Part shown: positions 518 through 30,455 of the stretch, piece after piece
Numbering within the stretch: position 1 is the first letter of the stretch
Layout: each line of letters starts with the position of its first letter
From: Bacilli bacterium
GTDB taxonomy: Bacteria; Bacillota_I; Bacilli_A; RF39; UBA660
Assembly: GCA_041655535.1 (NCBI GenBank)
Contig: JBBAFH010000001.1
Coordinates: 194,294 to 258,293, forward strand
Direction: 5' to 3'
Length of the DNA stretch: 64,000 nucleotides
Notes under the pieces: generated by a model
What the model was told of the DNA's origin: nothing
Database searches by the model: none
What the model saw: the letters and a program-made list of their open reading frames with translations, nothing else
Program-made: the position numbers and the translations under genes

Positions 518-1330
518 TCATTTTTTTATATGTTTTAATTCATTATCAATTAAATTTACATCATTTTCTTTGTAATCTTTAATAATCTTTTTTAAACTTT
601 CTAATTCTTCCTTTTTACTATTAGTAACTGAACTGTTACTTTCAAGTGTTTTTGATAAAGTCTTTACTTTTGTTTGTTCTTCAATTTCATTTACTTCTAG
701 ATCGTTATTTTTTATATCGCGATTAATTTTCTTATCACTTGCTTCATAAGTCTTACAATAATCATTAAGTGTTCTAACTTGTAAAATTACTGTTGATAGG
801 TATAAAATTTTAAATAGTTTATCAAAATTTCTAATATCTATAAAGAATGCAGAACAGATTAATGAATCTAAGAATACCGTTTTTACTTTTCCAATTTTAC
901 TAGTTCTAGGTTGTAACCCTTTAATATGAGCATACCCGTTAACACTAGCAATAGTCATATCTAAAATAATTGGAACAATTAAATAAGGATTTGTAATGAA
1001 CAGGGGAATTGTTACTGATGTAATAAATATTTTATCAACAACTGCATCCAAATTTGCTCCAAAGTTAGATGAAGCATCTAATGCTCTAGCAACCTTACCA
1101 TCAATTAAATCTGTAACAGAAGCTGCTAGTGCGATGTAACCCGCAGTAATTAAATTTCCACTTAGAATATTAGCAACAATAAAAGGTGCTAAAAAGAGTC
1201 TTGAAATGGTAAAAAGATTGGGAATTTGTTTTGCTAAATCTTTAGGAGATTTAATCTTTTTTAAATCCTCTTTTCCTTCATTTATAAATAACATCCATTT
1301 CTCTTTGATTTTTTCATACACTTCTTTCAT
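518..1330 (-). CDS. CDP-alcohol phosphatidyltransferase family protein (PgsA-like) with C-terminal coiled-coil extension
   Basis: Motif DLIDGKVARALDASSNFGANLDAVVDK matches D-G-x2-A-R...G-x3-D-x3-D of CDP-OH phosphotransferases; TM helices. Confidence 0.75.
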   Translation of the reverse strand: MKEVYEKIKEKWMLFINEGKEDLKKIKSPKDLAKQIPNLFTISRLFLAPFIVANILSGNLITAGYIALAASVTDLIDGKVARALDASSNFGANLDAVVDKIFITSVTIPLFITNPYLIVPIILDMTIASVNGYAHIKGLQPRTSKIGKVKTVFLDSLICSAFFIDIRNFDKLFKILYLSTVILQVRTLNDYCKTYEASDKKINRDIKNNDLEVNEIEEQTKVKTLSKTLESNSSVTNSKKEELESLKKIIKDYKENDVNLIDNELKHIKK

Positions 1331-1479
1331 GTAAATCCCCCCACTATGTTAAATATTATAACAAAATGTCTAATATTGTCAAGTTTTTAACATATTTTCA
1401 AATGCAATTAATAAACTAGTAATGTATTAAGAAATTAATACGCTAGGAAACTCGTAGTGCTACGGTTTCCTTTTTTATT

Positions 1480-1518: not shown

Positions 1519-1603
1519 GTGGTATTGCAATGCGCTTATAGATTTAATAGCATTTTTTTGTTATAATTAGTATGTAATATATTGTCGAATGGAGGGGAAT
1601 AAT

Positions 1604-4600
1604 ATGAAAATTTTTAACAGGGTTACTACTATTATATTAATTATTGGAATATTATTCTCAAATTTTGTACCATTGATTAATATTTTGGCAGCAACTGTTC
1701 CAATATCAAATTGTACTCAATCGGATTATAAGGTTGCTAATGAAACAACTGATTTGGCATGTTATAACACTTACAATGAAGCCTTAAATCATATGAATAA
1801 CTATCCTTCTAAAATAGGTGATGTGGCGCGTATTGTACACAATAATAGAATAATTAATGCGAAATATGCAATTGTAAAATTGGATACAAAAGGAAGCGCA
1901 AGTATAAATACAACTATAACAGGTACTGAAAACGGTGATGGGTATCTTAATGGATATTATGGCACCGATGCTGTGTTACTAGATTATGATCCAACAAATA
2001 AAAAAATGAAGATAAAAATTTCAGGAGTTGTTGGATATATTTCTTTAAATGATGGGATAGTTGAGCCTCTTACCACTGAAGTTACAGGTTTAGATTCAAA
2101 TAAAAATTATTTTAAAATAATTGTTTCCGATTTAAGAATGAGAGATAGTGTTGGAACAAGTGGTAAAGTAATAATTGATGAGATACCTATTTATTCACTT
2201 GTTGAAGTAATCGATTCTAAACCAATTTTAAAAGATGGCTATCAATGGTATAAAGTTAAATATAAAAATACAACAGGTTATATTGGTACTGATCCAAATG
2301 AACCATATATTGAGACAGTTTCTAATAATTTGAAATTGGAAACTTATTACTACAAAGAAAATGGCAAATTATATCATAAAATTTTATATAACAGTTATGG
2401 AAGAAGGTCAATCCCTTTATATTTAGGAAAGGCACCCCTTTATTTAAAAGAAAATACCAGATATTATAGTTTCGATGGAATCTACTTTTATATTAACATA
2501 ATAGATATGATTACTGATTATAAAACGGGTACTAATACGAAAGCAGTTAATAAAACACCTTACTATAATTATTATTTGTATCTACCATATAGAAGCTATT
2601 CTAATGCCACAGCAGCTGATTTAAACACATATATTAATACCCGATATTCTGCTAAGATTAACCGTTTTGCTTATTATGAATATAATTTAGATAAATTACC
2701 AGATGCCCCTGGTATTGAAGAATGTGCAAGTATTGCAAATGTTATTGAAAAAAGAGGTTGCGAAGGTGAAAAAAGATTGGCAACTGGTCGTGCCGGAACT
2801 TGGGTAGATGTAACAAAAGGTATCAATTTTGAAAATGGAGTTTCAATGCTTCATGGTGAAGGCGCTAATTTCGTTAATTCACAAGAATCATATGGTGCTA
2901 ATTCAATGTTAACATTTAGTATTGCTATCAATGAAAGTGCTTTTGGAAGAAGTGCAATATCAGTAACAAAATATAATTTATTTGGGCATAGTGCTTATGA
3001 TCATGATGCTTTTGGAAGTGCTGGTAATTACAATTCAATAAAGGCTGGGATTACTTATCATGCAGATAACTTTATTTCAGATGGTTTTGCGCATCCTTTA
3101 GATTCTCGTCATTATGGATCACATCTTGGCAACAAGGGAAGTGGCATCAATCTTAAATATGCGTCTGATCCTTATTGGGGCGAAAAAGCAGTACAATATT
3201 ATGCGCAAATTATTGATGAAACAGGAATTAATGATTTTAAAAAAGACACTATTGGAATTAAAATTAGTAATGATTCAGTTAACGTTCGTCAAACTCCTAA
3301 TACTTCGAGCAAATCATTATATTTGCTAAAATCCACTTCTAATCTGCCTGTTGTTATACTAGATGAAGTTGAAGGTGAAGTTTTAAATGGTAATAATATA
3401 TGGTATAAAATTCAAACAGATCCCAGTCTAGATGTTAATGGAAATTATGTGAATAAAAGTGCACCATATCCAAATAGTGGTCTCTACAATAAAGATTATA
3501 GTGTTGGATATGTACATTCTTCATTAATTTATGTTGAATCTGAAAAACCTATTATTACTGCTAATAATGTGTCAATATATAAAAATAGTTCATTTAACCC
3601 ATTAAATCATGCCTCTGCATATGATCCATGGGATGGTGATTTAACCAATAAGATTACTAGTACAGGTAATGTGGACACTTTAAAGGTGGGAACTTATGTA
3701 GTTACCTATTCTGTTACTGACAGTGATAATAATACAACTACTAAAAATATAAATGTTAATGTAGTTGATAATAAGGATCCTTTAATACAAGGAACTAAGG
3801 ATATCGAAATCTTTGTTGGACAGACATTAGATTTAAAAAAAGGAATCACAGCGACTGATCCTGAAGAAGGGGATTTAACAGGTAAAATAAAAATAAATCC
3901 TGCAACAATTAATACCAGTACACCAGGTGTTTATTCAGTAACATACAGCGTTAGTGACAGTTCTGGAAAGACTATATCAAAAACAATAAAAGTAACTATA
4001 AATGGTGAATATAAAAAAGTAAATGGTTCATTTGGTTTAGAAAGTTTAAAATATAACAATCAAAATCAAAGAATTGATATTAAAGGGTACTTAACAATTT
4101 TGAATATTGACAATAATTTAAATAATATTTTTACATATGATATTATATTGAAAAACCTAAACAATAGTGAGCAACATGTTTTATCACTGGATAGATGGAC
4201 ATCTGATAGGGAATTTCCATTTCAAATACCAAATAGTGATGGAAAAAATTACAAATATTCTTGGTTTAAAGGCAGTTTAGACTTATCAAATGTTCCACAA
4301 GGGGATTATTTAGTTTATGTTAGAGCGAGGGGTAATGGTTATGAAACTACAGCACTTTTAAGGGATATATTTTTTAAAGAAAAAAGTAATAAACTTGATA
4401 AAAAAATTGTGATAAACAATCGTGGTTATTTATTTAGAAGAAACTTTTTAGATAGAAAGATTCCGCTGGAATTGTATATAAGAGATGAAAACTTAATCTC
4501 AACAAAAGAAGTGCCAACAATTGATAATATGTTTAATTCTTTTTACAAATTAAACTTAAGTGATAAATTTTTAAATATTAGAGGCACTTCATATAATGTT

Positions 4601-4981
4601 GGAGGAAACTATTCAACCAATGTTAATGTTACTCGTAAAATTATTTTAGAACATCAAGGTACTTTCAAGAGAACTACTTATGATGTGGGGTATATAGACA
4701 AGGGTGATTATAAAGTAACCTTAAATGTTTCTGATAATCTTGATAAAACTCGAGCATGGTTCGATGCTAATTTGGATGTTTCCCTACTTGAAGAAGGAAC
4801 TTATGTAATTTATATCCATACAAAAACAGGCACAATTGATGATCATGGTATATTGAATGATTTATCTTTTAGAAATTTAGGTACTAAAATAACCATTAAT
4901 AATAAAGAAATATCATTACAAAGAAATAACAACAAACAAATGCGCATTGAGCTTGTTGTAAAAACCATTACTGACAAATAA
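1604..4981 (+). CDS. Large secreted cell-wall hydrolase: N-acetylglucosaminidase (glucosaminidase domain) with SH3-like domains and two tandem Ig-like (DUF5011-type) repeats
   Basis: RBS GGAGGGG before ATG 1604 (ORF track starts 1589); signal peptide; SMLTFSIAINESAFGRS...YNLFGHSAY resembles the glucosaminidase ALESGWG...NLFGI signature; two ~75-aa repeats (…VGTYVVTYSVTDSDNNTTTKNINVNVVD / …PGVYSVTYSVSDSSGKTISKTIKVTI). Confidence 0.7.
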   Translation: MKIFNRVTTIILIIGILFSNFVPLINILAATVPISNCTQSDYKVANETTDLACYNTYNEALNHMNNYPSKIGDVARIVHNNRIINAKYAIVKLDTKGSASINTTITGTENGDGYLNGYYGTDAVLLDYDPTNKKMKIKISGVVGYISLNDGIVEPLTTEVTGLDSNKNYFKIIVSDLRMRDSVGTSGKVIIDEIPIYSLVEVIDSKPILKDGYQWYKVKYKNTTGYIGTDPNEPYIETVSNNLKLETYYYKENGKLYHKILYNSYGRRSIPLYLGKAPLYLKENTRYYSFDGIYFYINIIDMITDYKTGTNTKAVNKTPYYNYYLYLPYRSYSNATAADLNTYINTRYSAKINRFAYYEYNLDKLPDAPGIEECASIANVIEKRGCEGEKRLATGRAGTWVDVTKGINFENGVSMLHGEGANFVNSQESYGANSMLTFSIAINESAFGRSAISVTKYNLFGHSAYDHDAFGSAGNYNSIKAGITYHADNFISDGFAHPLDSRHYGSHLGNKGSGINLKYASDPYWGEKAVQYYAQIIDETGINDFKKDTIGIKISNDSVNVRQTPNTSSKSLYLLKSTSNLPVVILDEVEGEVLNGNNIWYKIQTDPSLDVNGNYVNKSAPYPNSGLYNKDYSVGYVHSSLIYVESEKPIITANNVSIYKNSSFNPLNHASAYDPWDGDLTNKITSTGNVDTLKVGTYVVTYSVTDSDNNTTTKNINVNVVDNKDPLIQGTKDIEIFVGQTLDLKKGITATDPEEGDLTGKIKINPATINTSTPGVYSVTYSVSDSSGKTISKTIKVTINGEYKKVNGSFGLESLKYNNQNQRIDIKGYLTILNIDNNLNNIFTYDIILKNLNNSEQHVLSLDRWTSDREFPFQIPNSDGKNYKYSWFKGSLDLSNVPQGDYLVYVRARGNGYETTALLRDIFFKEKSNKLDKKIVINNRGYLFRRNFLDRKIPLELYIRDENLISTKEVPTIDNMFNSFYKLNLSDKFLNIRGTSYNVGGNYSTNVNVTRKIILEHQGTFKRTTYDVGYIDKGDYKVTLNVSDNLDKTRAWFDANLDVSLLEEGTYVIYIHTKTGTIDDHGILNDLSFRNLGTKITINNKEISLQRNNNKQMRIELVVKTITDK

Positions 4982-10895: not shown

Positions 10896-12161
10896 ATGAA
10901 AAAGGTTTTAATAATAGCTAATCAATTTCCACCAATGGGTGGTGCTGGTGTTCAGAGAACAACAAAATTTGTAAAATATTTACCAATGTATGGTATTGAA
11001 CCAATTGTAGTTACTAAAGAGCACGTTGATAAGTTAACAGATAATTCTCTATTGGATGATATTAATGATAAGATAAAGATATATCGATTGGCTCCGTATG
11101 ATTTAGTTAATAAAAAGGGAATTTTAAAATTACCATTAAAATTTATAGGAACTAGAATAATGATGCCGGATTCCGAATGTTTTTGGTACTATTTTAATCG
11201 TAAAAAGGTATTTGAAATTATAAAAAAAGAAAAAACAGAAATAATATACACTACATCATTTCCATATAGTGCACATTTGTTAGGGTTATATATTAAGAAA
11301 AAATTACCGAAAATCCATTGGGTTGTTGATTTTCGAGATGAGTGGACGAATAATCCATATCACTTAGATAATACTGTTAGAAAAATTAAACTAATGTTAG
11401 AACGAAAAATGGAAAAAAACGTTACTAATAATTGTGACTATCTAATAACCAATACTCCTTTTATGCTAAAGAACTTTGTAAAAGACAATCCTACATTAAA
11501 AGGGAAATCTTCTTATATTCCAAATGGATACGATGAGGATGATTTTAAAACTATCAATACTCAAAAACAACAAAATAATAAATTGATTATTACTCATACT
11601 GGGTCATTATATGGAAGACGAAATTTAACTGAGTTTTTAGATGGTTTAAAAATTGCTGTTGATTCTAAAAAAATTGATAAATCAAAGATTGAAATAAGAA
11701 TTGTCGGTAATGTGCATCAAAAGGTTTTAGATGATTATTCAAGAAAATATAATATTGAAGGCGTTATAAAATCATATGGATATTTACCACATAAAGAAAG
11801 TATTCAAGAACTTTACAATTCTGATATTTTATTGTTGTTGATTGGAAAAGGGAAAGGATCCGAAAATTTTTACACAGGTAAATTATTCGAATATATATTT
11901 GTTAACAGACCAATTTTAGCAATAGTACCTGAAAAAGGTGCTGCAGCACAGGTTATAAAAGAAACAAAAACGGGATTTGTAGTCGAACCAGAAAATGTCC
12001 ATGCCATAAGTAAAGAGTTAATCAATTTATATGAAAAATGGTTAAATAAAAAATTAATAATAATGCCAAACAATGAAAAAATTGAAAAATATAGTCGTAA
12101 AACTCAGACAAAAGAATTGTCAAAAATCCTAAAAATCAACAACGATAGTGAGGAAGTGTAA
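10896..12161 (+). CDS. Glycosyltransferase family 4
   Basis: GT4 fold features, ~420 aa, EX7E-like region; locus context. Confidence 0.65.
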   Translation: MKKVLIIANQFPPMGGAGVQRTTKFVKYLPMYGIEPIVVTKEHVDKLTDNSLLDDINDKIKIYRLAPYDLVNKKGILKLPLKFIGTRIMMPDSECFWYYFNRKKVFEIIKKEKTEIIYTTSFPYSAHLLGLYIKKKLPKIHWVVDFRDEWTNNPYHLDNTVRKIKLMLERKMEKNVTNNCDYLITNTPFMLKNFVKDNPTLKGKSSYIPNGYDEDDFKTINTQKQQNNKLIITHTGSLYGRRNLTEFLDGLKIAVDSKKIDKSKIEIRIVGNVHQKVLDDYSRKYNIEGVIKSYGYLPHKESIQELYNSDILLLLIGKGKGSENFYTGKLFEYIFVNRPILAIVPEKGAAAQVIKETKTGFVVEPENVHAISKELINLYEKWLNKKLIIMPNNEKIEKYSRKTQTKELSKILKINNDSEEV

Positions 12162-12630
12162 TTTGAAAAATATAAACTGGATAGACATTTTAATTATAAT
12201 TTGTATTATCATTATTGCAATTATAACTCCTAAAACAATATCAAACTTTAAAAAGAAATATGAAAATCCTAAAAATTTGAGTGAACAAAATATAATTTTA
12301 ACAGTTGTGGTTGATGGTTTATGGATGGAGACAAAATTCAATTTAAAAGAAGGCGATTATGTTAATAATATTAATTCTCAACATAAAGGGAAAATTATAA
12401 ATTATAAATTTAAATCATCGCCTATGCTTTTAACCAATATTAATGGTGATATTATTGGTGTCACCAGTCTAAAAAAACAAAAAATAGTGTTAAAAATTGA
12501 AGCGAATGTTCTTACAACGGGTTCATATATTGCTTTTAATGGACAAGAAATAAAAGTTGGATTACCATTTATAACAAAAACAAATTCATTAGAACTAACT
12601 GGTAAAATTCAATATATAGAGGTGGCGTAA
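12148..12630 (+). CDS. Small N-terminally membrane-anchored protein, unknown function (paralog of next gene)
   Basis: GTG start overlapping previous stop (alternative TTG at 12163 after GAGGAAG RBS); single N-terminal TM then ~130-aa beta-rich domain. Confidence 0.5.
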   Translation: MRKCNLKNINWIDILIIICIIIIAIITPKTISNFKKKYENPKNLSEQNIILTVVVDGLWMETKFNLKEGDYVNNINSQHKGKIINYKFKSSPMLLTNINGDIIGVTSLKKQKIVLKIEANVLTTGSYIAFNGQEIKVGLPFITKTNSLELTGKIQYIEVA

Positions 12631-13136
12631 TGAAAATTATAGATAATAAGGGAAGAATTTTTGGAAAGATAAACATTGTTGATTTTGTAGCATTTGTTAT
12701 TCTAATCATATTACTATTTTTAGCTACAAAGGAGATATTTAATGTTATTAGTAAAAATAATATTGATTTGGGGACTGAAAAGAGCGAAGTTAATATTGAG
12801 TTTGAAGTTGTTATGTTGTACGAAAAAGATTTCTTTGATGTTATAAAAATAGGTGACAAATTAATAGAACGAAATAATGAATTATCCGCTAATATTATAG
12901 ATATCAAAATTTCGGCCGTATCAGTAAAATCAGTTACTGATACCGATAGTGACAATTTAATTGAAATACCATTTTACGAGAAAGCTAATGTAAAAATTAA
13001 TGCAACTGTTAAAAACAAGAATTATACTTATAAATTAGGGCAACAAACGATTGCTATTGGAAAGTTTTTCACTCTTGAATCAAAATTATATAAATATAAT
13101 TCTCAAATTGTCAATGTGGTGGAGATAGATAAATGA
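12630..13136 (+). CDS. Small N-terminally membrane-anchored protein, unknown function (paralog of previous gene)
   Basis: Same architecture as 12148..12630; translationally coupled (ATG overlaps TAA). Confidence 0.5.
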   Translation: MKIIDNKGRIFGKINIVDFVAFVILIILLFLATKEIFNVISKNNIDLGTEKSEVNIEFEVVMLYEKDFFDVIKIGDKLIERNNELSANIIDIKISAVSVKSVTDTDSDNLIEIPFYEKANVKINATVKNKNYTYKLGQQTIAIGKFFTLESKLYKYNSQIVNVVEIDK

Positions 13137-16705: not shown

Positions 16706-17824
16706 ATGAAAAAAATTTTAATTACTCAAAGTGATTTAACAATTGGCGGAATTCAAAAATCTTTAATTAATTTATTAAATCAACTCGATTATACAAAATA
16801 TAAAGTTGATTTAGTTCTTTTCGAAAAGAAAGGTGAATTATTAAATGAGGTCCCATCAGAAGTTAATATTATTTCAATAAAAGAAAAATACAATCTAACC
16901 TTATCAAAAAAAGAACGCATATTAAAGGAAGTATTTAGTTATAAATCATTTTTTAACAAATTATATAAAAATTTAAAAGATGAAACAAGATATGATGTTG
17001 CAATAGCGTTTGATGGTTATGTTTCGTTTTCCGATTATTATGCTGCATTTTCAAATGCAGCAAAGAAAGTAATTTGGGTTCATAGTGATTTTTATTCGAG
17101 AAAAAAATTCCAATTTAAGTTTAAAATTAAATTGTTTAGTTTAAAAGACAAATATCAATATTTTGACCAAATTGTTGCTGTATCAAATAGTGCACAAGAA
17201 GGTTTCATTAAAGTTTTTCCTAAAAATAAGGAAAAAACAACATATATTTGGAATTTCATGGAAGCACCAAAAAAAGATTTTTTAATAGAAGAACCAGATA
17301 TTATATTTAATAAAGATTATTTTAATATTATAAGTATTGGTGCCTTATTACCTGTAAAAGGATATGAACGTTTAATAAAGGTTCAAACAAAACTTAATAA
17401 AAATGGTTTTAATACTAAAATGTATATATTAGGTGATGGTCAACAGCGTAAAAAATTAGAAAAACTAATCAAAAAAAATAATTTAGAAGATAGTTTTATA
17501 TTGTTGGGTAGAAGAAAAGATGTTTATCCAATTTTAAAACAAGCGGATTTATTTGTTTCCTCATCTTATTATGAAGGTTTTGGAGTAGTTTTGCTTGAGA
17601 GTTTATCATTAGGTGTTCCTATTTTAGTGCCCAGAATATCTGGTGTATCTGACATTGCAAAGTACATAGCACCCGAAAATTCTGCAAAAATTGTTGAAAA
17701 TTCAGTTGAGGGATTATATGATGGAATTATTGAATATATCAATGAATCAAAAAAAACATTTAAATTTGATTTAAATGATTATAATAGAAAAGTACTTAAT
17801 GAAATAGAAAAAATATTAAATTAA
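16706..17824 (+). CDS. Glycosyltransferase family 4
   Basis: C-terminal …SSYYEGFGVVLLESLSLGVPILVP… GT4 signature. Confidence 0.7.
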   Translation: MKKILITQSDLTIGGIQKSLINLLNQLDYTKYKVDLVLFEKKGELLNEVPSEVNIISIKEKYNLTLSKKERILKEVFSYKSFFNKLYKNLKDETRYDVAIAFDGYVSFSDYYAAFSNAAKKVIWVHSDFYSRKKFQFKFKIKLFSLKDKYQYFDQIVAVSNSAQEGFIKVFPKNKEKTTYIWNFMEAPKKDFLIEEPDIIFNKDYFNIISIGALLPVKGYERLIKVQTKLNKNGFNTKMYILGDGQQRKKLEKLIKKNNLEDSFILLGRRKDVYPILKQADLFVSSSYYEGFGVVLLESLSLGVPILVPRISGVSDIAKYIAPENSAKIVENSVEGLYDGIIEYINESKKTFKFDLNDYNRKVLNEIEKILN

Positions 17825-17838
17825 TGTAGGAGGATTTT

Positions 17839-18948
17839 ATGATTAAAGTTATGACAATATTTGGTACAAGACCGGAGGCTATTAAAATGGCACCGCTTGT
17901 AAAGGAATTAAAAAGTAGAGAGGAAATCGAGTGTATTGTGTGTGTAACTGCACAACATCGTGAAATGTTAGATCAAGTATTAGAAACATTTGATATAACA
18001 CCTGATTATGATTTAAATATCATGAAACATGGACAAACATTAGGAGATGTTACAACTCGTGCTGTTAATGGATTAGAAGGTGTTATTAGAGAAACTAAAC
18101 CTGATATAGTTTTAGTTCATGGTGATACTACTACAACTTTTGCTGGAGCTTTAGCTGCATTTTATAATCAGGCAGCTATCGGACATGTTGAAGCAGGGTT
18201 AAGAACCTGGAATATGTATTCACCATATCCAGAAGAAGCAAACAGACAAATGGTTGGTGTAATTGCCAACATGCATTTCTCTCCAACAAAAGCTGCTGCT
18301 GATAATTTAATTAATGAAGGCAAAAACAAAGCTGATATTTTTGTTACTGGAAACACTGTAATTGATGCAATGGATTATACCGTTGATGACAATTACAAAC
18401 ATGATGTAATTGATTGGGTAGGGGAAGATAGAATGATTCTATTAACTGCTCATCGTCGTGAAAATTTAGGTGAACCTATGAAAAATATTTTTAAAGCTAT
18501 TAAAAGAATAGTAATAGAGTTTAATGATATTAAAGTAGTTTATCCAATTCATATGAATCCTAAGGTTCGTGAAGTTGCAAACGAAGTATTTGGTGATTGT
18601 GATAAGGTTAGATTAATCGAACCATTAGAAGTAATTGATTTTCATAATTTTATAAATAAATCTTATATTATTTTAACTGATAGTGGCGGTATTCAAGAGG
18701 AAGCCCCATCATTAGGAAAGCCAGTATTAGTACTTCGTGATACTACTGAAAGACCAGAAGGAATTGAAGCTGGAACTTTAAAGCTTGTCGGTACTCATGA
18801 AGAACTTATTTATAACGAAACAAAACAATTGTTAGAAAATTATGAATTATATAAGAAAATGAGTGAAGCTCATAATCCATATGGAGATGGATTAGCTAGT
18901 AAAAGAATTGTTGATGAGATTATAAAGAGACATGCTGAAAAAAAATAA
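17839..18948 (+). CDS. wecB: UDP-N-acetylglucosamine 2-epimerase (non-hydrolysing)
   Basis: MIKVMTIFGTRPEAIKMAPLV… and …HVEAGLRT…; 369 aa. Confidence 0.85.
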   Translation: MIKVMTIFGTRPEAIKMAPLVKELKSREEIECIVCVTAQHREMLDQVLETFDITPDYDLNIMKHGQTLGDVTTRAVNGLEGVIRETKPDIVLVHGDTTTTFAGALAAFYNQAAIGHVEAGLRTWNMYSPYPEEANRQMVGVIANMHFSPTKAAADNLINEGKNKADIFVTGNTVIDAMDYTVDDNYKHDVIDWVGEDRMILLTAHRRENLGEPMKNIFKAIKRIVIEFNDIKVVYPIHMNPKVREVANEVFGDCDKVRLIEPLEVIDFHNFINKSYIILTDSGGIQEEAPSLGKPVLVLRDTTERPEGIEAGTLKLVGTHEELIYNETKQLLENYELYKKMSEAHNPYGDGLASKRIVDEIIKRHAEKK

Positions 18949-20413
18949 AATCATTTTTTTAATATTTACAGTTTTTTTTCTTATATACCCACTACTAATA
19001 ATTTTATTTAATAATTTTTTGTTATCTATTATTGTTTTTACAATATTAACTGCTGTTAGTTTTTTGTTATTTAAGAGTAAACCAATTAAAATTAATCCAA
19101 GATTAGTTTCTTATGCTCCATATATAGTTTTTGCTTTGGCATTACTAAGTAGATTAATTATTGTGTTTTTTATGAATGATAAAATTATACAAATATCTGA
19201 TTTTAGCAAAGCATTTAGCCGCGCTAATGATTTGAATTTTAGTGGTGACATGTATTATCAAATTTTCAGTCATTGGATTTTATATCCAAATATAATTCAC
19301 AATATTTTTGAAGTTTGGGGTAATAGTCAATTAATGGCCCTAATATTTAATGCATTGTGTGTTTCATTATCCTCCGTTTTAATTTATCAAATTACGTATA
19401 AAATCTTCAAAAATTATAAAATTGGTTTGATTGGTAGCTTAATATATATATTATGGCCATCGACAAGTTTTTATGTACTAATATTTAGCCCGGACCATAT
19501 TGCTGGACTACTTTTATTAATTTCGGTATATTTATATCTAATTTTCAACAATTCTTGGACTGAAAAAAAATGCTTTTATAATGTTCTCATTGCTTTTATA
19601 ATTGGAATTATAATAGGAATAAGTACTTTTTTTAAAAACTTTGGTCCTGTATTGTTAATTGCCATTATTATTATTTGTTTATTAGAAATGATAATTAATA
19701 AAAAGAATATTTTGACAATCAAAAAGCTTGGTTTTGTTATCATTATTCTTATATCATATATATTTTCTAAAAATGTAACTTTTAATTATATTGAAAATTT
19801 AGTTGGTGCTAAAGTAGGCCGAAATATTACTCCAATTTATTTAAATGTTGGTTTAAATAGTAAAAGTAAAGGATATTATAACAACGAAGTTTACAGTATG
19901 TATTTTAATGAGTTGAGGCAAAATAATTTAAATTTTGGAAAAACTAATAATGAAATTATGAAATTACTTATGTTTGACATTAAGTCAAATTATAGGGGGA
20001 TTCCACGAATGCTATATAATAAAACAATTACCAATTTTAGCACTGATAATGCCAAGTTTAATTGGGTGAAAAATTCCGTAATTGATTCCCAAACAGACAG
20101 AGTAGTTTTTGTGATAGAAAAAATATTAAAACCACTTACTAATTTCCATTATGTGATCATTATATTTTGTATGACTTTTATGGTAGTACAAAATTATCGT
20201 GAAAAAAATTTAGAGATATTATTATTATCTTTAATTATCTTTGGTGCAGCAGCAATGCTTATGTTGGTTGAAGCACAAGGAAGATATAGATACGCAATCG
20301 AACCATTTATGTGTATATTAGCAGGTGCTGGCATCTATTATTATAAGAATTTTGTCGGAGGTATTTTAAATGAAAAAATATATAAAGTTAATAAGACCAA
20401 AACACTATCTTAA
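18932..20413 (+). CDS. Polytopic membrane glycosyltransferase candidate (GT-C fold, ArnT/PMT-like)
   Basis: 493 aa, ~12 TM with large loops; positioned directly upstream of UbiA-type phosphoribosyltransferase. Confidence 0.45.
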   Translation: MLKKNKIIFLIFTVFFLIYPLLIILFNNFLLSIIVFTILTAVSFLLFKSKPIKINPRLVSYAPYIVFALALLSRLIIVFFMNDKIIQISDFSKAFSRANDLNFSGDMYYQIFSHWILYPNIIHNIFEVWGNSQLMALIFNALCVSLSSVLIYQITYKIFKNYKIGLIGSLIYILWPSTSFYVLIFSPDHIAGLLLLISVYLYLIFNNSWTEKKCFYNVLIAFIIGIIIGISTFFKNFGPVLLIAIIIICLLEMIINKKNILTIKKLGFVIIILISYIFSKNVTFNYIENLVGAKVGRNITPIYLNVGLNSKSKGYYNNEVYSMYFNELRQNNLNFGKTNNEIMKLLMFDIKSNYRGIPRMLYNKTITNFSTDNAKFNWVKNSVIDSQTDRVVFVIEKILKPLTNFHYVIIIFCMTFMVVQNYREKNLEILLLSLIIFGAAAMLMLVEAQGRYRYAIEPFMCILAGAGIYYYKNFVGGILNEKIYKVNKTKTLS

Positions 20414-21260
20414 AAACATTTTAATTTTTTTACCATTATTATTTAGTGGTAAATTACTGGAGTTTGAACAATTAAAACTGACTGTAATTGCTTTTATATC
20501 ATTTAGTTTTATGGCATCAGTTGTATATATTATAAATGATATTAGAGACAAAGAAAAAGATAAACTACATATAAAAAAGAAACTACGTCCTATTGCATCA
20601 GGTGATGTAAGTGTAACTAAAGCAGTCATCCTTGCATTAATGTTATTTGTTGCTTCAATTTCGATAAGTTTAATAAATTTCCCTGACGTAACAATATACA
20701 GTTATATGGCTTGCTTAATTTTGTATTTATTATTAAATGTTGGGTATAGTTTTGGTCTCAAAAATGTTCCATTAATGGATGTAACAATATTAGTTAGTGG
20801 ATTTTTTCTTAGAGTGTTTTATGGTGCTTTAGTTATTAATGTTAATATTTCTAACTGGTTGTATTTAACAGTAATTGCAATTTCTTTTTATATGAGTTTA
20901 GGGAAAAGAAGAAACGAAATAATTAAACAAGGAACAAATTCTAGAGAAGTGTTAAAGTATTATAATCTTAGTTTTCTTGATAAAAACATGTATATGTGCT
21001 TAGCTATAACAATTGTTTTTTATTCGTTATGGTGTGTAGATCCTACGACTGTATTAAAAACAGGACAAGCTATTATTTGGACAGTTCCACTTGTCATTTT
21101 AATCTGTATGAAATATAGTATGAATATTGAGGGTAATAGTTTAGGAGATCCAATTGATGTTATTTTTGCTGATAAGGTTCTAATGACATTAGTTCTAATT
21201 TATGGAATAATTATAGTATTATTGCTTTATTTACCAAAATTGAGCGGAATATTATTATGA
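20370..21260 (+). CDS. UbiA-family prenyltransferase, decaprenyl-phosphate 5-phosphoribosyltransferase-like
   Basis: INDIRDKEKDKLHIKKKLRPIASG matches UbiA NDxxDxxxD motif and DPPR-synthase-like RP(I/L)(A/P)SG; 8-9 TM; GGAGG RBS. Confidence 0.65.
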   Translation: MKKYIKLIRPKHYLKNILIFLPLLFSGKLLEFEQLKLTVIAFISFSFMASVVYIINDIRDKEKDKLHIKKKLRPIASGDVSVTKAVILALMLFVASISISLINFPDVTIYSYMACLILYLLLNVGYSFGLKNVPLMDVTILVSGFFLRVFYGALVINVNISNWLYLTVIAISFYMSLGKRRNEIIKQGTNSREVLKYYNLSFLDKNMYMCLAITIVFYSLWCVDPTTVLKTGQAIIWTVPLVILICMKYSMNIEGNSLGDPIDVIFADKVLMTLVLIYGIIIVLLLYLPKLSGILL

Positions 21261-21823
21261 ATGTAAATCTATATGATTTTGATGGAACTATTTATGATGG
21301 AGATTCAACGATTGACTTTTATTTATTTTGTCTAAACAAACAAATTACATTGTTAAAGTATTTACCAATACAAGTTTTATATACATTCTTCTATTTTTTA
21401 AAGATTGTTGACAAGAAAAAATGGAAAGAAAAATATTTTGTTTTTTTAAAAGGAATACATGATATTGAATATAAGATAGAATCCTTTTGGCAAATTAATC
21501 AAAATAAAATTAAAAAATGGTATATTGATAAAAACCATGAAAACGATATAATTATTTCAGCATCTCCGGAATTTTTATTGTTACCAATATCTAAAAAGTT
21601 AGATGTTTTAAAGCTAATAGGAACAGTTGTTGATCCTAAAACGGGTATATTTCTGAGTGAGAATTGTCGTGGGGAAGAAAAAGTGAAAAGGTTAAAAAAT
21701 ATATTTCCGAGTATTAAAGTAGAAGAAGCCTATACAGACACGCTTTCTGATGAACCAATAATTAAATTGGCTAGTAAGGGATACATGGTAAAAGGAAATA
21801 AAATTTATAATTTTTATAACTAA
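21257..21823 (+). CDS. HAD-superfamily hydrolase (phosphatase)
   Basis: N-terminal LYDFDGTIYDGDS (DxDGT motif); coupled to UbiA-like gene. Confidence 0.65.
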   Translation: MNVNLYDFDGTIYDGDSTIDFYLFCLNKQITLLKYLPIQVLYTFFYFLKIVDKKKWKEKYFVFLKGIHDIEYKIESFWQINQNKIKKWYIDKNHENDIIISASPEFLLLPISKKLDVLKLIGTVVDPKTGIFLSENCRGEEKVKRLKNIFPSIKVEEAYTDTLSDEPIIKLASKGYMVKGNKIYNFYN

Positions 21824-21834
21824 AGGAGATATCT

Positions 21835-22554
21835 ATGGAAAATTATATTAAAAAAGATAAAACAATATTACTTTTTTCCTATTTGTTTTTTGTTATTCCA
21901 GCAATATTATTTTTAATTGGTTGGTTTAAACTTTACATTTCTATTCCGGCTGTTATTTTATTGGTAATTGCAACATTTTTTTGTTTTAAAAATTTTAAGG
22001 TTAAAGCAGAAGATGAATATAAAAGTATATTTAAAATTAAAAAATGGATTATAGTTATCGTTTTAGTTTTAATTTTAAATATATTATCAGGTATTGGTGG
22101 TTTTGCATTTCAAAATGGAGATCATAATGCTAGGAATGCCGTTATGCATGACTTAATTGATTACAAATGGGTCACCGGCTTTATAATATTTATGTCGATA
22201 ATTCCGTTCTTTTATATTGGGCAAGGTGCGGATTTCGTTAATAGGGTATCAATTCCCATGTTAATTGTAATAATGTTTATGATTATGGAAAAAATTAATA
22301 ACTTTAATTTCAAAAAACCCATTCATCTTATGATAATTATTTATCTATTAATTTCCTCTGTAACCGCCTATAACGAAATAACTCGTACTATTTATCGTAC
22401 TGTAATGCAAAATAAATTTGATATTAATCTTAATAGAAACGATAACTGGTTGACTTACGGAAAAATAATTAGAGATGATGTAATTGTCCATTTTAAAAAT
22501 TTTTCGACACCATACGACAAGGAAAGATTTATTTTTAAATATATTTTAAAATAA
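21835..22554 (+). CDS. Membrane protein, unknown function
   Basis: 239 aa, 6 TM. Confidence 0.45.
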   Translation: MENYIKKDKTILLFSYLFFVIPAILFLIGWFKLYISIPAVILLVIATFFCFKNFKVKAEDEYKSIFKIKKWIIVIVLVLILNILSGIGGFAFQNGDHNARNAVMHDLIDYKWVTGFIIFMSIIPFFYIGQGADFVNRVSIPMLIVIMFMIMEKINNFNFKKPIHLMIIIYLLISSVTAYNEITRTIYRTVMQNKFDINLNRNDNWLTYGKIIRDDVIVHFKNFSTPYDKERFIFKYILK

Positions 22555-22570
22555 TTTATGGAGGCATTGT

Positions 22571-24148
22571 ATGAAAATAACAAACAAATTAAAAAATATA
22601 ATAATTATTTCAACTATTGGTTTAACCTCTGTAACAACATTAAGTTTCTTATCAGCGTTTTTATCATCTTTTGTTGCTTTTATTTTAATTTATAAATTTA
22701 AATTATTAGAAAGGTTTATTGATGATAATAATTATTTAATTGAAAATATTGAATATATAATAAGTTTTATTTTGACAACATATTCTATTTATTATTTTTT
22801 AACATTTTGGAGGTCTTTAAGTTCAAATATTTATATTATTCCATTTGCAGTTTTGGCCATACCTTCATTATTTGTTATATATTTAATTCTTATAAGAAAT
22901 GTATTGCCAATTATACTTAATTTTTTTCAAAACTTAAGTAAAGCCGAAAAAATATTTTTTATAGTTAGTACCGTATGTATGACTATAATAATTTTTAATA
23001 TTTATTCAAATACCAATGCTTTTTATTATCCGATTAATAAAAATACTGGTAAACCTAAACTTTATAATGTTATTTATTCTTCTGATAATGGGGGATTAAT
23101 ACGTCAGGATAGTTTTAAAAACTTTAAAGGTTCTGAAAATGATTTAAGACAACCTTTATTTGGAGTATTTTCTTTTCCGTTTGGGTTAGTATCAGAAGGT
23201 GTTGCTAGAGCAAATATTTTTTCAGGATATATTATTTCTTACTCATTTATGATAAGTTTTTTTCAAGTATTATTGTTAAGTGTGATGGCAATATTAATAA
23301 GTAGAATGGTTACTAAAAAGGATTCACTTCTTGTAATGATTTTATTTGGAATTTCATTTCCAACCATTCTGTTTGCAATTAATATTGAACAGTTTACTAT
23401 TGCAACTTTCTTTTTAATCTTACTTATTTATAATTGGGTTCAAAAAGATAAACCTAATCCCTTATTGTTTTGTATGGCATCAGGTACTTTGATAACAAGT
23501 GGAGTATTGCTACCTTTTATTTTAAAAAAGGATAAAATAAAAAAATATATACTTGAAGGTATTAAATACTGTTTAATCTTTATAATCATTATCATTGTAG
23601 TCGGCTTATTTTGTACCTTTGTTGATAATATTTTAAATTATAGTAAATTTATGAAATATATGGGCAAAGAAATTAATTTTGGTGATAAAATGTTGCAATA
23701 TATTAATTTTGTTAGTAGTTGTTTGATAACTCCTTCTGCGATGATTGAAAGACTTTCTGCTGATAATGTTTCATATCAGCTTGCTCCAGTAACATCAGTT
23801 AATATTTTGGGAATTATTATATTAATGATTGCAATTATTTCCTTTATATTAAACCGAAGTGAAAAGATAGTTCAAGTATCATTTGGTTGGATTATTTATT
23901 CTTTTATTATTTTATGTATAATGGGGTGGGGAACTAGTGAAAACGGCCTGATCTTATATGCTCTTTATTTTTCCTGGGCCTTTATTATATTAATATATAA
24001 ATTTATTCAAAAGTTGTTTGATAATGATTTAATGAGAAAAATAGTACTTAGTACTATTATAATAGGAATACTATTTATTAATACTAATGGAATTATAGAC
24101 ATTGTAAAATTTGGAATAGAATATTATCCAACAAGAAATGCGAAATGA
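22571..24148 (+). CDS. Polytopic membrane protein, possible GT-C glycosyltransferase/polymerase
   Basis: 525 aa, >12 TM. Confidence 0.45.
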   Translation: MKITNKLKNIIIISTIGLTSVTTLSFLSAFLSSFVAFILIYKFKLLERFIDDNNYLIENIEYIISFILTTYSIYYFLTFWRSLSSNIYIIPFAVLAIPSLFVIYLILIRNVLPIILNFFQNLSKAEKIFFIVSTVCMTIIIFNIYSNTNAFYYPINKNTGKPKLYNVIYSSDNGGLIRQDSFKNFKGSENDLRQPLFGVFSFPFGLVSEGVARANIFSGYIISYSFMISFFQVLLLSVMAILISRMVTKKDSLLVMILFGISFPTILFAINIEQFTIATFFLILLIYNWVQKDKPNPLLFCMASGTLITSGVLLPFILKKDKIKKYILEGIKYCLIFIIIIIVVGLFCTFVDNILNYSKFMKYMGKEINFGDKMLQYINFVSSCLITPSAMIERLSADNVSYQLAPVTSVNILGIIILMIAIISFILNRSEKIVQVSFGWIIYSFIILCIMGWGTSENGLILYALYFSWAFIILIYKFIQKLFDNDLMRKIVLSTIIIGILFINTNGIIDIVKFGIEYYPTRNAK

Positions 24149-24211
24149 TGACAAAAATAACTATGATTATGGTATAATAATCATAGTTATTTAATTTAAA
24201 GGAGTGCGTTT

Positions 24212-25150
24212 ATGAAATTATCATTTGTAGTACCTTGCTATAATGAAGAAGAAAATGTTGAATTGTTTTATAATGAAGTAGTAAAGACTATGAAGTCTAA
24301 GAAAATTAAATATGAAATAATATTTATTAATGATGGTAGTAAAGATAATACGATTGAAGTATTAAAAGGTATTGCTAAAGGATCTAAAGAGAATGTTAAA
24401 ATAATAAATTTTTCTCGTAACTTTGGTAAGGAAGCAGGTATGTATGCTGGATTAAAAGAGGCAAGCGGGGAATATGTATCAATTATTGATGCTGATTTGC
24501 AACAAAGACCTTCTACAGTATTAGAAATGTATGATATTTTAGAAGAAAATTCTAATTATGATAGTGTTGCTGCTTTTCAAGAAAAAAGAAAAGACCCATT
24601 TTTCAAAAAAATATTTTCTCAATTATTTTACAAACTAATTAATAAAATATCAGAAGTTAAATTTGTTGATGGTGCAAGTGATTTTAGATTACTTAGAAGA
24701 AACATGGTTAATGCCATAATTGATATGAGTGAATATTATCGTTTTTCTAAAGGTATATTTTCATTTGTTGGATTTAATACTTATTACATTCCGTATCAAG
24801 CAGACAAAAGAGCTCACGGAACTTCTAAATGGTCATTTTGGTCATTATTTAAATATGCCATTGAAGGCATTGTGTCTTTTACAACAGCACCACTTAGAAT
24901 TGCAACTTTCTTTGGAATTATAATATCATTATTTTCATTTGTTTATTTAATTGTGTTAGTTTGTCAAACCTTAATTTTAGGTATAGATGTTCCTGGTTAT
25001 GCATCAACTTTAGGGGCTGTATTATTTCTAGGTGGTATTCAATTATTTGCACTTGGAATAATCGGAGAATACTTAGGGAGAACTTATGTTGAATCTAAGA
25101 GAAGACCAATATATATTACAAAAGAAGTAATTGATAGTAATAAAAAATAA
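24212..25150 (+). CDS. GT2 polyprenyl-phosphate glycosyltransferase (GtrB/ArnC/DPM1-like) with C-terminal TM helices
   Basis: VVPCYNEEENV…INDGSKDNT…DADLQ motifs (DXD), two C-terminal TM. Confidence 0.8.
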   Translation: MKLSFVVPCYNEEENVELFYNEVVKTMKSKKIKYEIIFINDGSKDNTIEVLKGIAKGSKENVKIINFSRNFGKEAGMYAGLKEASGEYVSIIDADLQQRPSTVLEMYDILEENSNYDSVAAFQEKRKDPFFKKIFSQLFYKLINKISEVKFVDGASDFRLLRRNMVNAIIDMSEYYRFSKGIFSFVGFNTYYIPYQADKRAHGTSKWSFWSLFKYAIEGIVSFTTAPLRIATFFGIIISLFSFVYLIVLVCQTLILGIDVPGYASTLGAVLFLGGIQLFALGIIGEYLGRTYVESKRRPIYITKEVIDSNKK

Positions 25151-25162
25151 TTATTTTACAAT

Positions 25163-25190
25163 TTGACAAAAGGAAAAATTATGCTATAAT
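25163..25190 (+). promoter_or_regulatory. Consensus sigma-A promoter (TTGACA-16 nt-TGcTATAAT) driving the large ncRNA
   Basis: ttgaca at 25163-25168, tgctataat at 25182-25190. Confidence 0.65.
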
Positions 25191-25196
25191 GTTTAC

Positions 25197-25765
25197 TGAT
25201 TGATGGCGCATTATTCTAGTCAATTTTATTTATTGTGAAGGTGGGGCTAAAAATCCACTATAGGGCACATCTGTGAAGCTCCTGGTTCTTGCCTCTTACG
25301 CCCAGTTTGGGGTGGGAGCTGGGGGATAGGTTATTGGGCGCTCGTAATGGCATACGACAACGTTCCAATAACCGTTGAGGCCTGTTGGGGTAAACCTTTC
25401 AGGATTAAACCTATCTATGGTTAGCGCTATAGGTAGTGTAGCCTGTCTTGAGTGGGTATAGGGGATAATTGATCTACCTCTTCTGTCTTTGGCCAAGGAT
25501 GGAAGGATATTGCAATTTGAAACTATATCTGCAAAAGAGAATTAACTTTAAATAATTGGTGAGGAAAACTCCTAGAGTGTAATGTTAACATGGGATTAAA
25601 GTGTGTACTAAGTGGCAATCGAGTCATATGCTTGGCGACAGTATTTCTGTATCTTTAAAGGGGAACCGCTTTATGGTAACGTAAAGTAGATGCTGGGGAA
25701 AACCAACTCGACCTAAGGCGCAAGATTTACTATGTTAACAGCCATCTTTTTTTGAAATTTGAAAG
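25197..25765 (+). ncRNA. Large (~570 nt) GC-rich structured non-coding RNA; OLE-RNA-like candidate
   Basis: No ORF on + strand; GC content far above flanks; many local and long-range complementary segments (GTGG…CCAC, GGTTATTGG…CCAATAACC, GATAGGTT…AACCTATC); own promoter; T-run at 25756-25764; followed 8 nt later by RBS+membrane protein gene. Confidence 0.55.
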
Positions 25766-25772
25766 GTGAATT

Positions 25773-26372
25773 ATGAAATTGGATAAGTCCCAAAAAATTG
25801 AAGTCGAAAAATTTAAGAAACAAAGTAAGAAAAAAGAAACAGCAAAATCGAATTATAAATGGGTAATTCAGATTACTGTTAGTGCTTTTATTATATCTCT
25901 TCTTTTTAGTTTTATTGCAGAAGTTACTATTCCTAACGTTAATATAGTTGTTGGAATAATTTTAGTAATCCTTTTTATATTAATAGGTATTATTTTTGAT
26001 ATAATTGGAATAGCCGTAGCATCTGCTGAAATTAAACCATTTCATTCAATGAATGCTAAAAAGGTACAAGGATCAGATATTGCCATTGAACTTATAAAAA
26101 ATGCTGCTAAAGTATCGTCATTTTGTAACGATGTTGTTGGTGATATTTGCGGTATTGTTTCTGGTTCTGCAAGTGCAATGATTGCTATAACAATAGCCCA
26201 AAAATTAAATATTAATGTTGTTGTTGTTAGTTTATTAGTAACTGCCATTATTGCATCGTTAACAATTGGTGGTAAAGCTATTGGCAAAAGTTATGCAATT
26301 AATAAAAGTAGTATTATTTTATATAATTTTGGTAAGATAATTTCTTATGTTTATAAAGTTAAAAAAGATTGA
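25773..26372 (+). CDS. Small 4-TM membrane protein; OapA-like partner of upstream ncRNA (hypothesis)
   Basis: 199 aa; four predicted TM helices; RBS AAAGGTGA; immediately downstream and co-oriented with ncRNA. Confidence 0.5.
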   Translation: MKLDKSQKIEVEKFKKQSKKKETAKSNYKWVIQITVSAFIISLLFSFIAEVTIPNVNIVVGIILVILFILIGIIFDIIGIAVASAEIKPFHSMNAKKVQGSDIAIELIKNAAKVSSFCNDVVGDICGIVSGSASAMIAITIAQKLNINVVVVSLLVTAIIASLTIGGKAIGKSYAINKSSIILYNFGKIISYVYKVKKD

Positions 26373-26444
26373 TTTTGGTTGACTATCAATTTTTTTTATT
26401 GTATAATTATAATAGTAGTAATGATTACTACATTGAGGTGATTT

Positions 26445-26834
26445 ATGAGATATTCAAGACAACGCGAATTAATTTTAACGTATGTTCAAAATTGTGATGA
26501 TCATCCAACCGCTGATATGGTATACAAACGAGTTCGAAAAATTATACCTAATATTAGTTTAGGAACGGTATATCGGAATTTAAATCAATTATGTGAACTC
26601 AATTTAATTAGGAAGATTGTTTTTCCAAATAAAATTGATCGTTTTGATAAGGTTCATCATGATCATGGACACATTTATTGTAGTAATTGTGGCCGTGTCG
26701 AAGATATTGGTAAGGAATTATTAGTATCAGCATACGATGAAATTGAAGATCGAACTGATTTTCGAATATTATCACACGATGTTGTGTTTGCTGGAATATG
26801 CGATAAATGCCTAGGTAGAAAGGAAAGATTATAA
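26445..26834 (+). CDS. Fur-family transcriptional regulator (PerR-like)
   Basis: HTH N-terminus, HHDH and C-x2-C…C-x2-C metal sites. Confidence 0.75.
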
Positions 26835-26835
26835 T

Positions 26836-27378
26836 ATGGAATTAAAAGGAACTAAAACAGAACAAAATTTAATGACAGCTTTTGCTGGAGAAACTCAAGC
26901 AAGAACTAAGTACAATTATTATGCATCTGCTGCTAAAAAGGAAGGTTACGAGCAAATTGCTGCAATCTTTGATGAAACAGCTAACAATGAAAAAGAACAT
27001 GCTAAAATATGGTTTAAATTACTTCATGGTGGAACCGTTCCTCATACTGAAGAAAACTTATTAGATGCTGCTATGGGTGAAAATTATGAATGGACAGAAA
27101 TGTACAATGAATTTGCTAAAGTAGCTAGAGAAGAAGGATTTGAAAATATTGCTAATCTATTTGATGGAGTTGCTAAAATTGAAAAAGAACATGAAGATAG
27201 ATATAGAGTATTATTAGAAAACGTTAAAGAAAAGAAAGTTTTTGAAAAAGGTGAAGAAAAGGTTTGGGTCTGTCGTAACTGTGGACACATTCATGTAGGA
27301 AACAAAGCTTTAGATTTATGCCCTGTATGTAACCATCCAAAAGCATTTTTTGAAGAAAAGGCTGAGAACTATTTATAA
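26836..27378 (+). CDS. rbr: Rubrerythrin
   Basis: Ferritin-like diiron E…ExxH repeats plus C-terminal rubredoxin CxxC…CxxC (CRNCGHIH…CPVCNH). Confidence 0.85.
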
Positions 27379-30378: not shown

Positions 30379-30455
30379 GGCGATGTAGCTCAGCTGGCTA
30401 GAGCGTCCGGTTCATACCCGGAAGGTCGGGGGTTCGATCCCCTCCGTCGCTACCA
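30379..30455 (+). tRNA. tRNA-Met (anticodon CAT; could alternatively be lysidine-modified tRNA-Ile2)
   Basis: Cloverleaf: acceptor GGCGATG/CGTCGCT (two G-U), D-arm GCTC-AGCTGGCTA-GAGC, anticodon stem TCCGG/CCGGA with loop TTCATAC, T-arm GGGGG-TTCGATC-CCCTC, encoded CCA. Confidence 0.85.

Follow-up and report, generated by a model that had tools for sequence, protein, structure and literature searches.

A full-type OLE RNA with a trimmed P7 encoded upstream of oapA in an uncultured Bacilli bacterium

OLE RNA (ornate, large, extremophilic; Puerta-Fernandez et al. 2006) is among the most intriguing of the bacterial noncoding RNAs, being large, ornate, dimeric and, as has been proposed, membrane-spanning. 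Among the characterised OLE RNAs, structures are those from Clostridium acetobutylicum (577 nt) and C. botulinum, and the genetics comes from Halalkalibacterium halodurans, in which OLE has been connected with coping with cold, with an excess of Mg2+, with short-chain alcohols and with growth on poor carbon sources. Members of the family in uncultured low-GC Bacilli lineages, reduced forms included, were catalogued in 2024 (PMC11332333). In the cryo-EM structures, the A-rich loop of P4 provides an A-A dimer bridge (PMC12265935, PMC12286853), the palindromic loop of P9 is a symmetric kissing-loop dimer contact, and a k-turn sits between J4a/5 and J6/7 (PMC12286853). The GNRA loop and the bulge of P13 are the features that define the binding site of OapB (PMC7936274).

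The locus described here lies in a 64-kb stretch of a metagenome-assembled genome (MAG), referred to in its whole length as the window, in which a 622-nt gap separates a GT2 glycosyltransferase gene (24212-25150) from an ORF of 199 aa (25773-26372). An earlier note on this DNA had proposed that the gap holds a GC-rich structured RNA without any credible ORF, most like OLE RNA beside oapA and otherwise a different or new class resembling ROOL or GOLLD. The composition bears this out, with a GC content of 40.3% at 25163-25772 and 41.2% in the Rfam match versus 26.3% for the whole window (the background had been put at about 28%), and 25187-25761 is the most GC-rich 575-nt stretch of the window (mean of 575-nt stretches 26.2%, sd 3.3%). 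The lack of a credible ORF was likewise confirmed, as the longest stop-to-stop frames in the gap reach 57 codons on the forward and 81 codons on the reverse strand, and the sole listed ORF is an antisense one of 66 aa with a TTG start (25296-25496). The single-sequence fold of the stretch has a z of -3.66 against shuffled sequences.

A scan of the entire window with 4227 Rfam families at gathering thresholds returned two matches, namely tRNA-Met at 30379 and, at 25187-25761 on the forward strand, OLE RNA (RF01071; E 1.7e-122), whose 428.5 bits far exceed the gathering score of 50. The bit-score classes of PMC11332333 (390, 310) belong to a different covariance model and are inapplicable to this Rfam score. 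The match covers the full model and is not truncated. No match to RNase P, tmRNA, SRP or rRNA was found anywhere in the window, which agrees with the earlier remark that RNase P and tmRNA signatures are absent and disposes of a housekeeping RNA as the source of the structure; ROOL, GOLLD, HEARO and raiA were likewise without a match at gathering score in the 64 kb. Nothing was found that contradicts membership of the OLE family. The GC-rich stretch is an ordinary member of this already known family, and the locus is almost certainly that of ole and oapA in an uncultured Bacilli bacterium with a low GC content and a probably anaerobic way of life. What had been an "intergenic" gap of the MAG can be annotated as an ole gene; the case is a routine one, since the standard Rfam model finds the RNA with a very high score. 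The features of the locus are the following.

25163-25190 (+), sigma-A type promoter, with -35 TTGACA at 25163-25168, a spacer of 16 nt and -10 TATAAT at 25185-25190
25182-25183 (+), extended -10 TG, making the promoter 12/12 plus TG
25187-25761 (+), OLE RNA gene, RF01071 match over model positions 1-616
25202-25207 with 25741-25746 (+), P1, from RNAalifold and the pairing check on the window
25209-25219 with 25572-25579 (+), P2, whose 5' strand includes the invariant UUCUAGUCA
25221-25236 with 25545-25558 (+), P3/P3.1, in which 10 of 11 pairs form
25240-25259 (+), P4 hairpin, with the A-rich loop GCUAAAAA at 25246-25253
25263-25266 with 25441-25444 (+), P4a
25267-25278 (+), J4a/5 ACAUCUGUGAAG, candidate first k-turn strand
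25270-25276 (+), parts of that strand: C-helix UC at 25270-25271, bulge UGU at 25272-25274 and GA at 25275-25276
25279-25325 (+), P5/P5.1 hairpin, 17 of 17 pairs, loop GCCCA at 25300-25304
25329-25373 (+), P6/P6.1 hairpin, 17 of 17 pairs, loop AUGGCA at 25347-25352
25374-25380 (+), J6/7 GUUGAGG, candidate partner k-turn strand, with GA-GG at 25377-25380
25381-25403 (+), P7, 23 nt, with a gap against model positions ~209-230
25409-25439 (+), P8 hairpin, 31 nt, of normal length
25446-25540 (+), P9 long arm, 95 nt, 26 of 27 pairs, palindromic loop GGCC at 25491-25494
25561-25571 (+), P10 hairpin GAGGAAAACUC, followed by the invariant CUAGAGUG (3' strand of P2)
25584-25739 (+), 3' domain, P12-P15
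25626-25646 (+), P13, with bulged C25631 and the GNRA loop GCGA at 25635-25638
25676-25679 (+), P14.1 loop GUAA (GNRA)
25696-25704 (+), P15
25747-25753 (+), run of seven T directly after the 3' strand of P1, GCCATC (25741-25746)
25773-26372 (+), oapA, 199 aa, with the RBS AAGGTGA at 25763-25769, starting 12 nt past the Rfam match

Related loci were collected through the downstream protein, 80 of them being fetched from GTDB species genomes and 17 of these scanned with Rfam. A full-length OLE match was present in 15 of the 17 (311-523 bits) and stood immediately upstream of the protein homolog in 14, including that of Clostridium argentinense, where an OLE RNA of 522.7 bits is directly followed by the homolog. 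In locus L012 (240-850 and 4001-4540) the OLE RNA and the oapA homolog downstream of it are not adjacent but separated by 3.1 kb, and in L010 and L035 the oapA homolog is present with no OLE match found within 4 kb on either side. Sixteen OLE sequences from Bacilli MAGs and Clostridia were aligned with MAFFT; about 130 columns are invariant, and the RNA of the window carries every one of them. It also has the near-invariant blocks UUCUAGUCA, CUAAAAAUCC, CGCCCAG, AAUGGCAU, GUAGC, UGCAAAAG, GAGGAAA, CCUAG, GGAUU and ACCUAAG, among others. The RNAalifold consensus of these sequences, derived without knowledge of the Rfam model, contains 169 pairs, 112 of them with compensatory double changes, and the covariation that the earlier note had suggested looking for among homologs is therefore present; 161 of the 167 consensus pairs checked can form in the window sequence. 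The consensus recovers the Rfam helices together with P1, P2, P3/P3.1 and P4a, which are published stems left unpaired in Rfam, and P1, P2 and P3/P3.1 are here backed by covariation. The size and structure of the family (about 600 nt, about 25 covariation-backed substructures) are matched by the 575 nt and the covarying pairs of this RNA. Because of this covariation and the synteny with oapA, an artefactual OLE match is excluded.

The RNA of the window is able to form the complete conserved architecture, composed of P1-P3, domain 1 (P4-P9) and domain 2 (P10, P12-P15), and its transcript likely extends from ~25197 to ~25753, roughly 555 nt. Like the known OLE RNAs, it has the P1-P15 architecture except for P11, the invariant loops, a candidate sequence for the k-turn, the GNRA loops of P13 and P14.1 and oapA immediately downstream, and its size is near that of the C. 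acetobutylicum RNA. P3/P3.1 comes near the ~12 bp that have been proposed to be able to span a membrane (PMC12265935). The loops implicated in dimerisation by cryo-EM are all present, namely the A-rich loop of P4, which is nearly invariant in the 16 sequences, GCCCA of L5.1, within a CGCCCAG that is invariant across the aligned sequences, AUGGCA of L6.1 and the palindromic L9. Most sequences have GGCC as the L9 tetranucleotide, L009 and L022 have AGCU and L016 has GUAC, so that it is a palindrome in every case. Such a constant palindrome is as expected of a symmetric intermolecular kissing loop, and Kretsch et al. used the same type of covariation in support of a kissing-loop dimer. The OapC site of OLE RNAs is a k-turn at the base of P5. 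Read from the sequence, J4a/5 and J6/7 could make a standard k-turn, provided that they pair in the way of the cryo-EM model (PMC12286853); the pairing scheme was drawn from a published k-turn (PMC9723947), and under the earlier J5/6 pairing of that work the 2b-2n pair of the candidate would be A-U. In P13, the bulged base is C25631, whereas H. halodurans has a U. The two helices on which the first description of the stretch had relied fared differently. GGTTATTGG (25329-25337) and CCAATAACC (25365-25373) constitute P6, which is 94% paired in the 16 homologs with compensatory changes. GATAGGTT (25325-25332) and AACCTATC (25408-25415) are perfect complements in the window and 70% paired in homologs, with no compensatory change at all; they compete with the covariation-backed P6 and P8 and were rejected as a conserved helix.

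The promoter that had been described ahead of the RNA, TTGACA-16-TGnTATAAT, held up on closer analysis. The window has two exact copies of this pattern, versus 0.00 expected from 100 shuffles. In 9 of the 16 OLE loci, that of C. argentinense among them, the same perfect promoter stands 10-16 nt ahead of P1, and three more have near-perfect versions; in those loci the perfect pattern occurs once per locus. The match is not due to chance. Transcription is predicted to start at ~25196-25199, a few bases before P1. While the ole gene of H. halodurans lies inside a long polycistronic operon, that of the window has its own consensus promoter, and the conservation of the promoter position in many OLE loci is a small addition to what is known of the family. 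The other perfect copy of the pattern in the window (TTGACA-N13-TGnTATAAT at 1355-1382, reverse strand) points towards 518-1330 (-) and away from the ORF at 1589-4981.

At the other end of the gene, the T-run that had been reported stands (TTTTTTT), and the Rfam consensus for OLE likewise closes with a U-run. A terminator scan found no hairpin ahead of the T-run on the forward strand, and a canonical intrinsic terminator was rejected at this position, as no local hairpin precedes it. From the T-run to the start codon of oapA there are 19 nt without an intervening promoter, too few to accommodate one, and oapA is presumably co-transcribed. On the sequence, oapA would be expressed by read-through, and the 3' end of OLE RNA would arise by partial termination or processing.

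The downstream protein was deposited, in identical form, as a hypothetical protein of "MAG: Bacilli bacterium", which places the host within the Bacillota, the phylum in which OLE RNAs occur, typically in anaerobes or extremophiles; this "hypothetical protein", WDA12_01115, is OapA. As had been noted, it is a small multi-spanning protein, with four hydrophobic helices in its 199 aa (residues ~31-51, 57-83, 121-142 and 147-166) and lysine-rich ends (net charge +7 for residues 1-29 and +6 for residues 167-199), which agrees with the make-up of OapA proteins, of about 200 aa with four predicted transmembrane helices and basic residues clustered on one face. It has thousands of homologs, about 25 positions are invariant across 20 of them, and it is 43% identical to the protein whose gene directly follows the OLE RNA in C. 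argentinense. Scans of the ORF with Pfam and NCBIfam gave no family at default thresholds, PF01595 (CNNM) was not matched even at E up to 10, and sequence searches of the PDB with the single protein and with a profile of 20 homologs gave no match. The AF2 model is all-helical, and the membrane domain of CNNM/CorB proteins is matched by this predicted fold; a CNNM-like fold has been published for OapA (PMC11332333). Many of the homologs carry a precomputed PF01595 match, and such matches are likewise reported for OapA in that work (PMC11332333). The CNNM relationship of this protein consequently rests on the predicted fold and on the homologs, as there is no PF01595 or PDB sequence match. The CNNM proteins MpfA, CorB and CorC, which are Mg2+ transporters, are distantly related to OapA through the PF01595 domain, but the protein of the window, as all OapA proteins, is without CBS or CorC domains. 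The full-length RF01071 match, the position of the homologs 3' of OLE RNAs and the CNNM/CorB-like predicted fold together uphold the original suggestion of OLE RNA and oapA.

The departures of the RNA from the consensus are confined to a short P7 and the absence of P11, and they are within or close to published variation. P7 measures 23 nt compared with 44-62 nt in most homologs, and the P11 hairpin of the Rfam consensus (model positions 424-435) is absent. The short P7 is common to the closest relatives (L001, L004, L008 and L007), some of the related MAGs carrying the labels Mollicutes or Tenericutes, and P11 is missing in all aligned sequences from Bacilli-type MAGs; the trimmed part of P7 and P11 would be dispensable in this short-P7 sub-lineage, another small addition. 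Lyon and Breaker remark that neither P7 nor P8 makes a dimer contact and that there is variation in the J6/7-P8 region (PMC12265935). In the description of Kretsch et al., L7 contributes to one dimer bridge. Since L7 has been given this role and the RNA studied here has a short P7 and no P11, details of its dimer may differ. Two reduced variants have been published, of which variant 1 (TANB77-type) has P7, P8 and P9 shortened and has often lost the P13 OapB site, and variant 2 (RF39-type), common in RF39, lacks P7 and P8 entirely (PMC11332333). As with both variants, the host is an uncultured low-GC Bacillota MAG and part of the J6/7-P8 region is reduced. In contrast to variant 1, only P7 is shortened, P8 and P9 having 31 and 95 nt and the GNRA loop and bulge of P13 being intact, and in contrast to variant 2, both P7 and P8 are present, although P7 is short. 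Neither variant fits, because P8, a full P9 and the P13 site are kept, and the RNA is a full-type OLE with a trimmed P7. One of the short-P7 relatives goes further (L007:1316-1884, Mollicutes MAG AS20ysBPTH_155): its J4a/5 has three gaps and AAAAA in place of CUGUGAAG, its J6/7 has CACAUCC in place of GAG, and its P7 is 14 nt, both proposed k-turn strands being lost together. This double loss fits the J4a/5-J6/7 k-turn of the cryo-EM model and a lineage without OapC.

Other explanations of the stretch differ considerably in their plausibility. A large size, a GC-rich composition in an AT-rich genome and the absence of an ORF would also suit a new or different class of large ornate RNA (ROOL-, GOLLD-, HEARO- or raiA-like), the fallback offered by the earlier note, but these features are general ones, whereas OLE alone among the 4227 Rfam families passes its gathering score on this stretch, over the full model, and every OLE signature block is conserved; the probability of this fallback is negligible and it has been abandoned. 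That the gene is a decaying or non-functional remnant (a pseudogene) in a reduced genome might be read from the shortened P7 and missing P11, and rare defective ole genes and reduced variants are reported from reduced-genome lineages (Fernando and Breaker, PMC11332333). However, the match is full-length with 161 of 167 consensus pairs intact, the highly conserved loops are all unbroken, the perfect promoter holds its position in relatives, and the oapA ORF is intact with every invariant residue of its family. The short-P7 form is moreover conserved in L001 and L004 (OapA identity 74-77%) and in L008 (64%), which implies selection, and decay is extremely unlikely. A somewhat less remote alternative, still very unlikely, is that the structured region is chiefly a cis-acting element, an exceptionally long 5' leader controlling oapA, and not a trans-acting RNA. 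The short distance from the Rfam match and from the T-run to oapA, with the co-transcription that would follow, agrees with a leader, and the T-run after P1 could serve as a conditional terminator. Against it, the OLE RNA of H. halodurans is a stable and abundant RNA that binds OapA and works in a ribonucleoprotein (RNP) complex (PMC12265935), and the 3.1-kb separation in L012 implies that adjacency to oapA is not required. A cis role could coexist with the RNP role.

Within OLE membership, which we retain, the composition of the RNP leaves more room. It is possible, if doubtful, that this is a reduced OLE variant whose RNP consists of the RNA and OapA only, without OapB and OapC, as has been proposed for RF39 and TANB77. 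The host MAG is labelled just "Bacilli bacterium", the MAGs that encode the nearest OapA relatives go under the names of Bacilli, Mollicutes, Tenericutes or Erysipelotrichaceae, lineages of RF39 and TANB77 type are largely without OapB and OapC (PMC11332333), and the short P7 and absent P11 point the same way. The RNA nevertheless retains P8, all of P9, a candidate k-turn of textbook sequence and, in P13, both the GNRA loop and the one-base bulge, the k-turn and P13 being features of the OapC and OapB sites, respectively. A scan of 10 standalone ORFs from the window (89-229 aa) for the L7Ae family (OapC) or another partner gave no match, a result of little weight for the genome as a whole. A more specific suggestion, which we hold to be unlikely, is that the short-P7, P11-less OLE RNAs with their own promoter, found in this MAG and in L001, L004, L008 and L007, could mark a distinct sub-lineage with a compact RNP in uncultured Bacilli, made perhaps of the RNA and OapA alone. 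An RNP of that composition, if real, would define a natural minimal core and would offer a compact construct for structural work on domain 2 and on the OapA complex.

For the full-type OLE RNA with a trimmed P7, a mode of action can be carried over from the H. halodurans genetics and the cryo-EM work on two Clostridium species (PMC12265935, PMC12286853, PMC10898510), on the understanding that the model of a dimer, membrane insertion and ion homeostasis is itself partly speculative. The RNA would be made from its own strong promoter, some transcripts ending or being cut near the U-run and the remainder being read through as oapA mRNA. Two OLE RNAs may then dimerise through the A-rich loops of P4, the palindromic L9 and contacts between L5.1 and L6.1. 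The CNNM-like OapA, putatively a transporter of divalent cations, would bind the RNA near P2 and P4a and hold it at, or possibly through, the membrane, and the RNP may help in adaptation to divalent cations and to stress in general. The RNA might supply the regulatory or sensor role for which MpfA/CNNM proteins have their CBS and CorC domains.

The neighbours of ole in the window are a surface-glycan cluster upstream and, downstream, genes for a Fur/PerR-family regulator (perR), rubrerythrin, glyA, folD, an SDR protein and tRNA-Met. The adjoining PerR-like regulator and rubrerythrin suggest that the host is probably anaerobic; the host, taken for an anaerobic Firmicute in the earlier note, is a "Bacilli bacterium" MAG and not necessarily of Clostridium type. 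Isoprenoid and DNA-repair genes are common neighbours of ole; neither kind was found within the part of the window scanned for neighbours (positions 16.7-34.8 kb). The downstream folD is among the listed ole neighbours.

Several further observations were made in the window and in the related loci. Between oapA and the Fur/PerR-family gene, a promoter-like TTGACT-17-TATAAT (26379-26407) precedes a perfect 8-1-8 inverted repeat, GTAGTAAT-G-ATTACTAC (26415-26431), which directly adjoins the RBS of the gene for the Fur/PerR-family regulator (26445-26834); the rubrerythrin gene comes next (26836-27378). Judged from this arrangement, the two genes look like an autoregulated peroxide-stress operon with its operator. 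The surface-glycan cluster (16706-25150) has eight or nine genes and encodes a GT4 glycosyltransferase, a UDP-GlcNAc 2-epimerase, a GT-C of PMT_2 type, a UbiA enzyme, a HAD-IB phosphatase and a PgfS-like GT2. The UbiA enzyme scores 204 bits against the model for decaprenyl-phosphate phosphoribosyltransferase (cutoff 207), and two ORFs of the cluster, at 21835-22554 (239 aa) and 22571-24148 (525 aa), are without a significant family match. The cluster could be a pathway of polyprenyl-phospho-pentose style in a low-GC Bacilli MAG. Elsewhere in the window, an ORF of 103 aa at 174-485 has a match (E 1.5e-17) to PF12810, the ALK/LTK glycine-rich domain, not a usual find in bacteria, and two DUF4330 ORFs adjoin each other at 12148-12630 and 12630-13136. 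In the related locus L017, a 6S RNA gene (3139-3319) lies directly upstream of the OLE gene (3396-3995), and in C. argentinense a RAGATH-18 RNA (L064:1048-1113) is located ~1.3 kb upstream of OLE.
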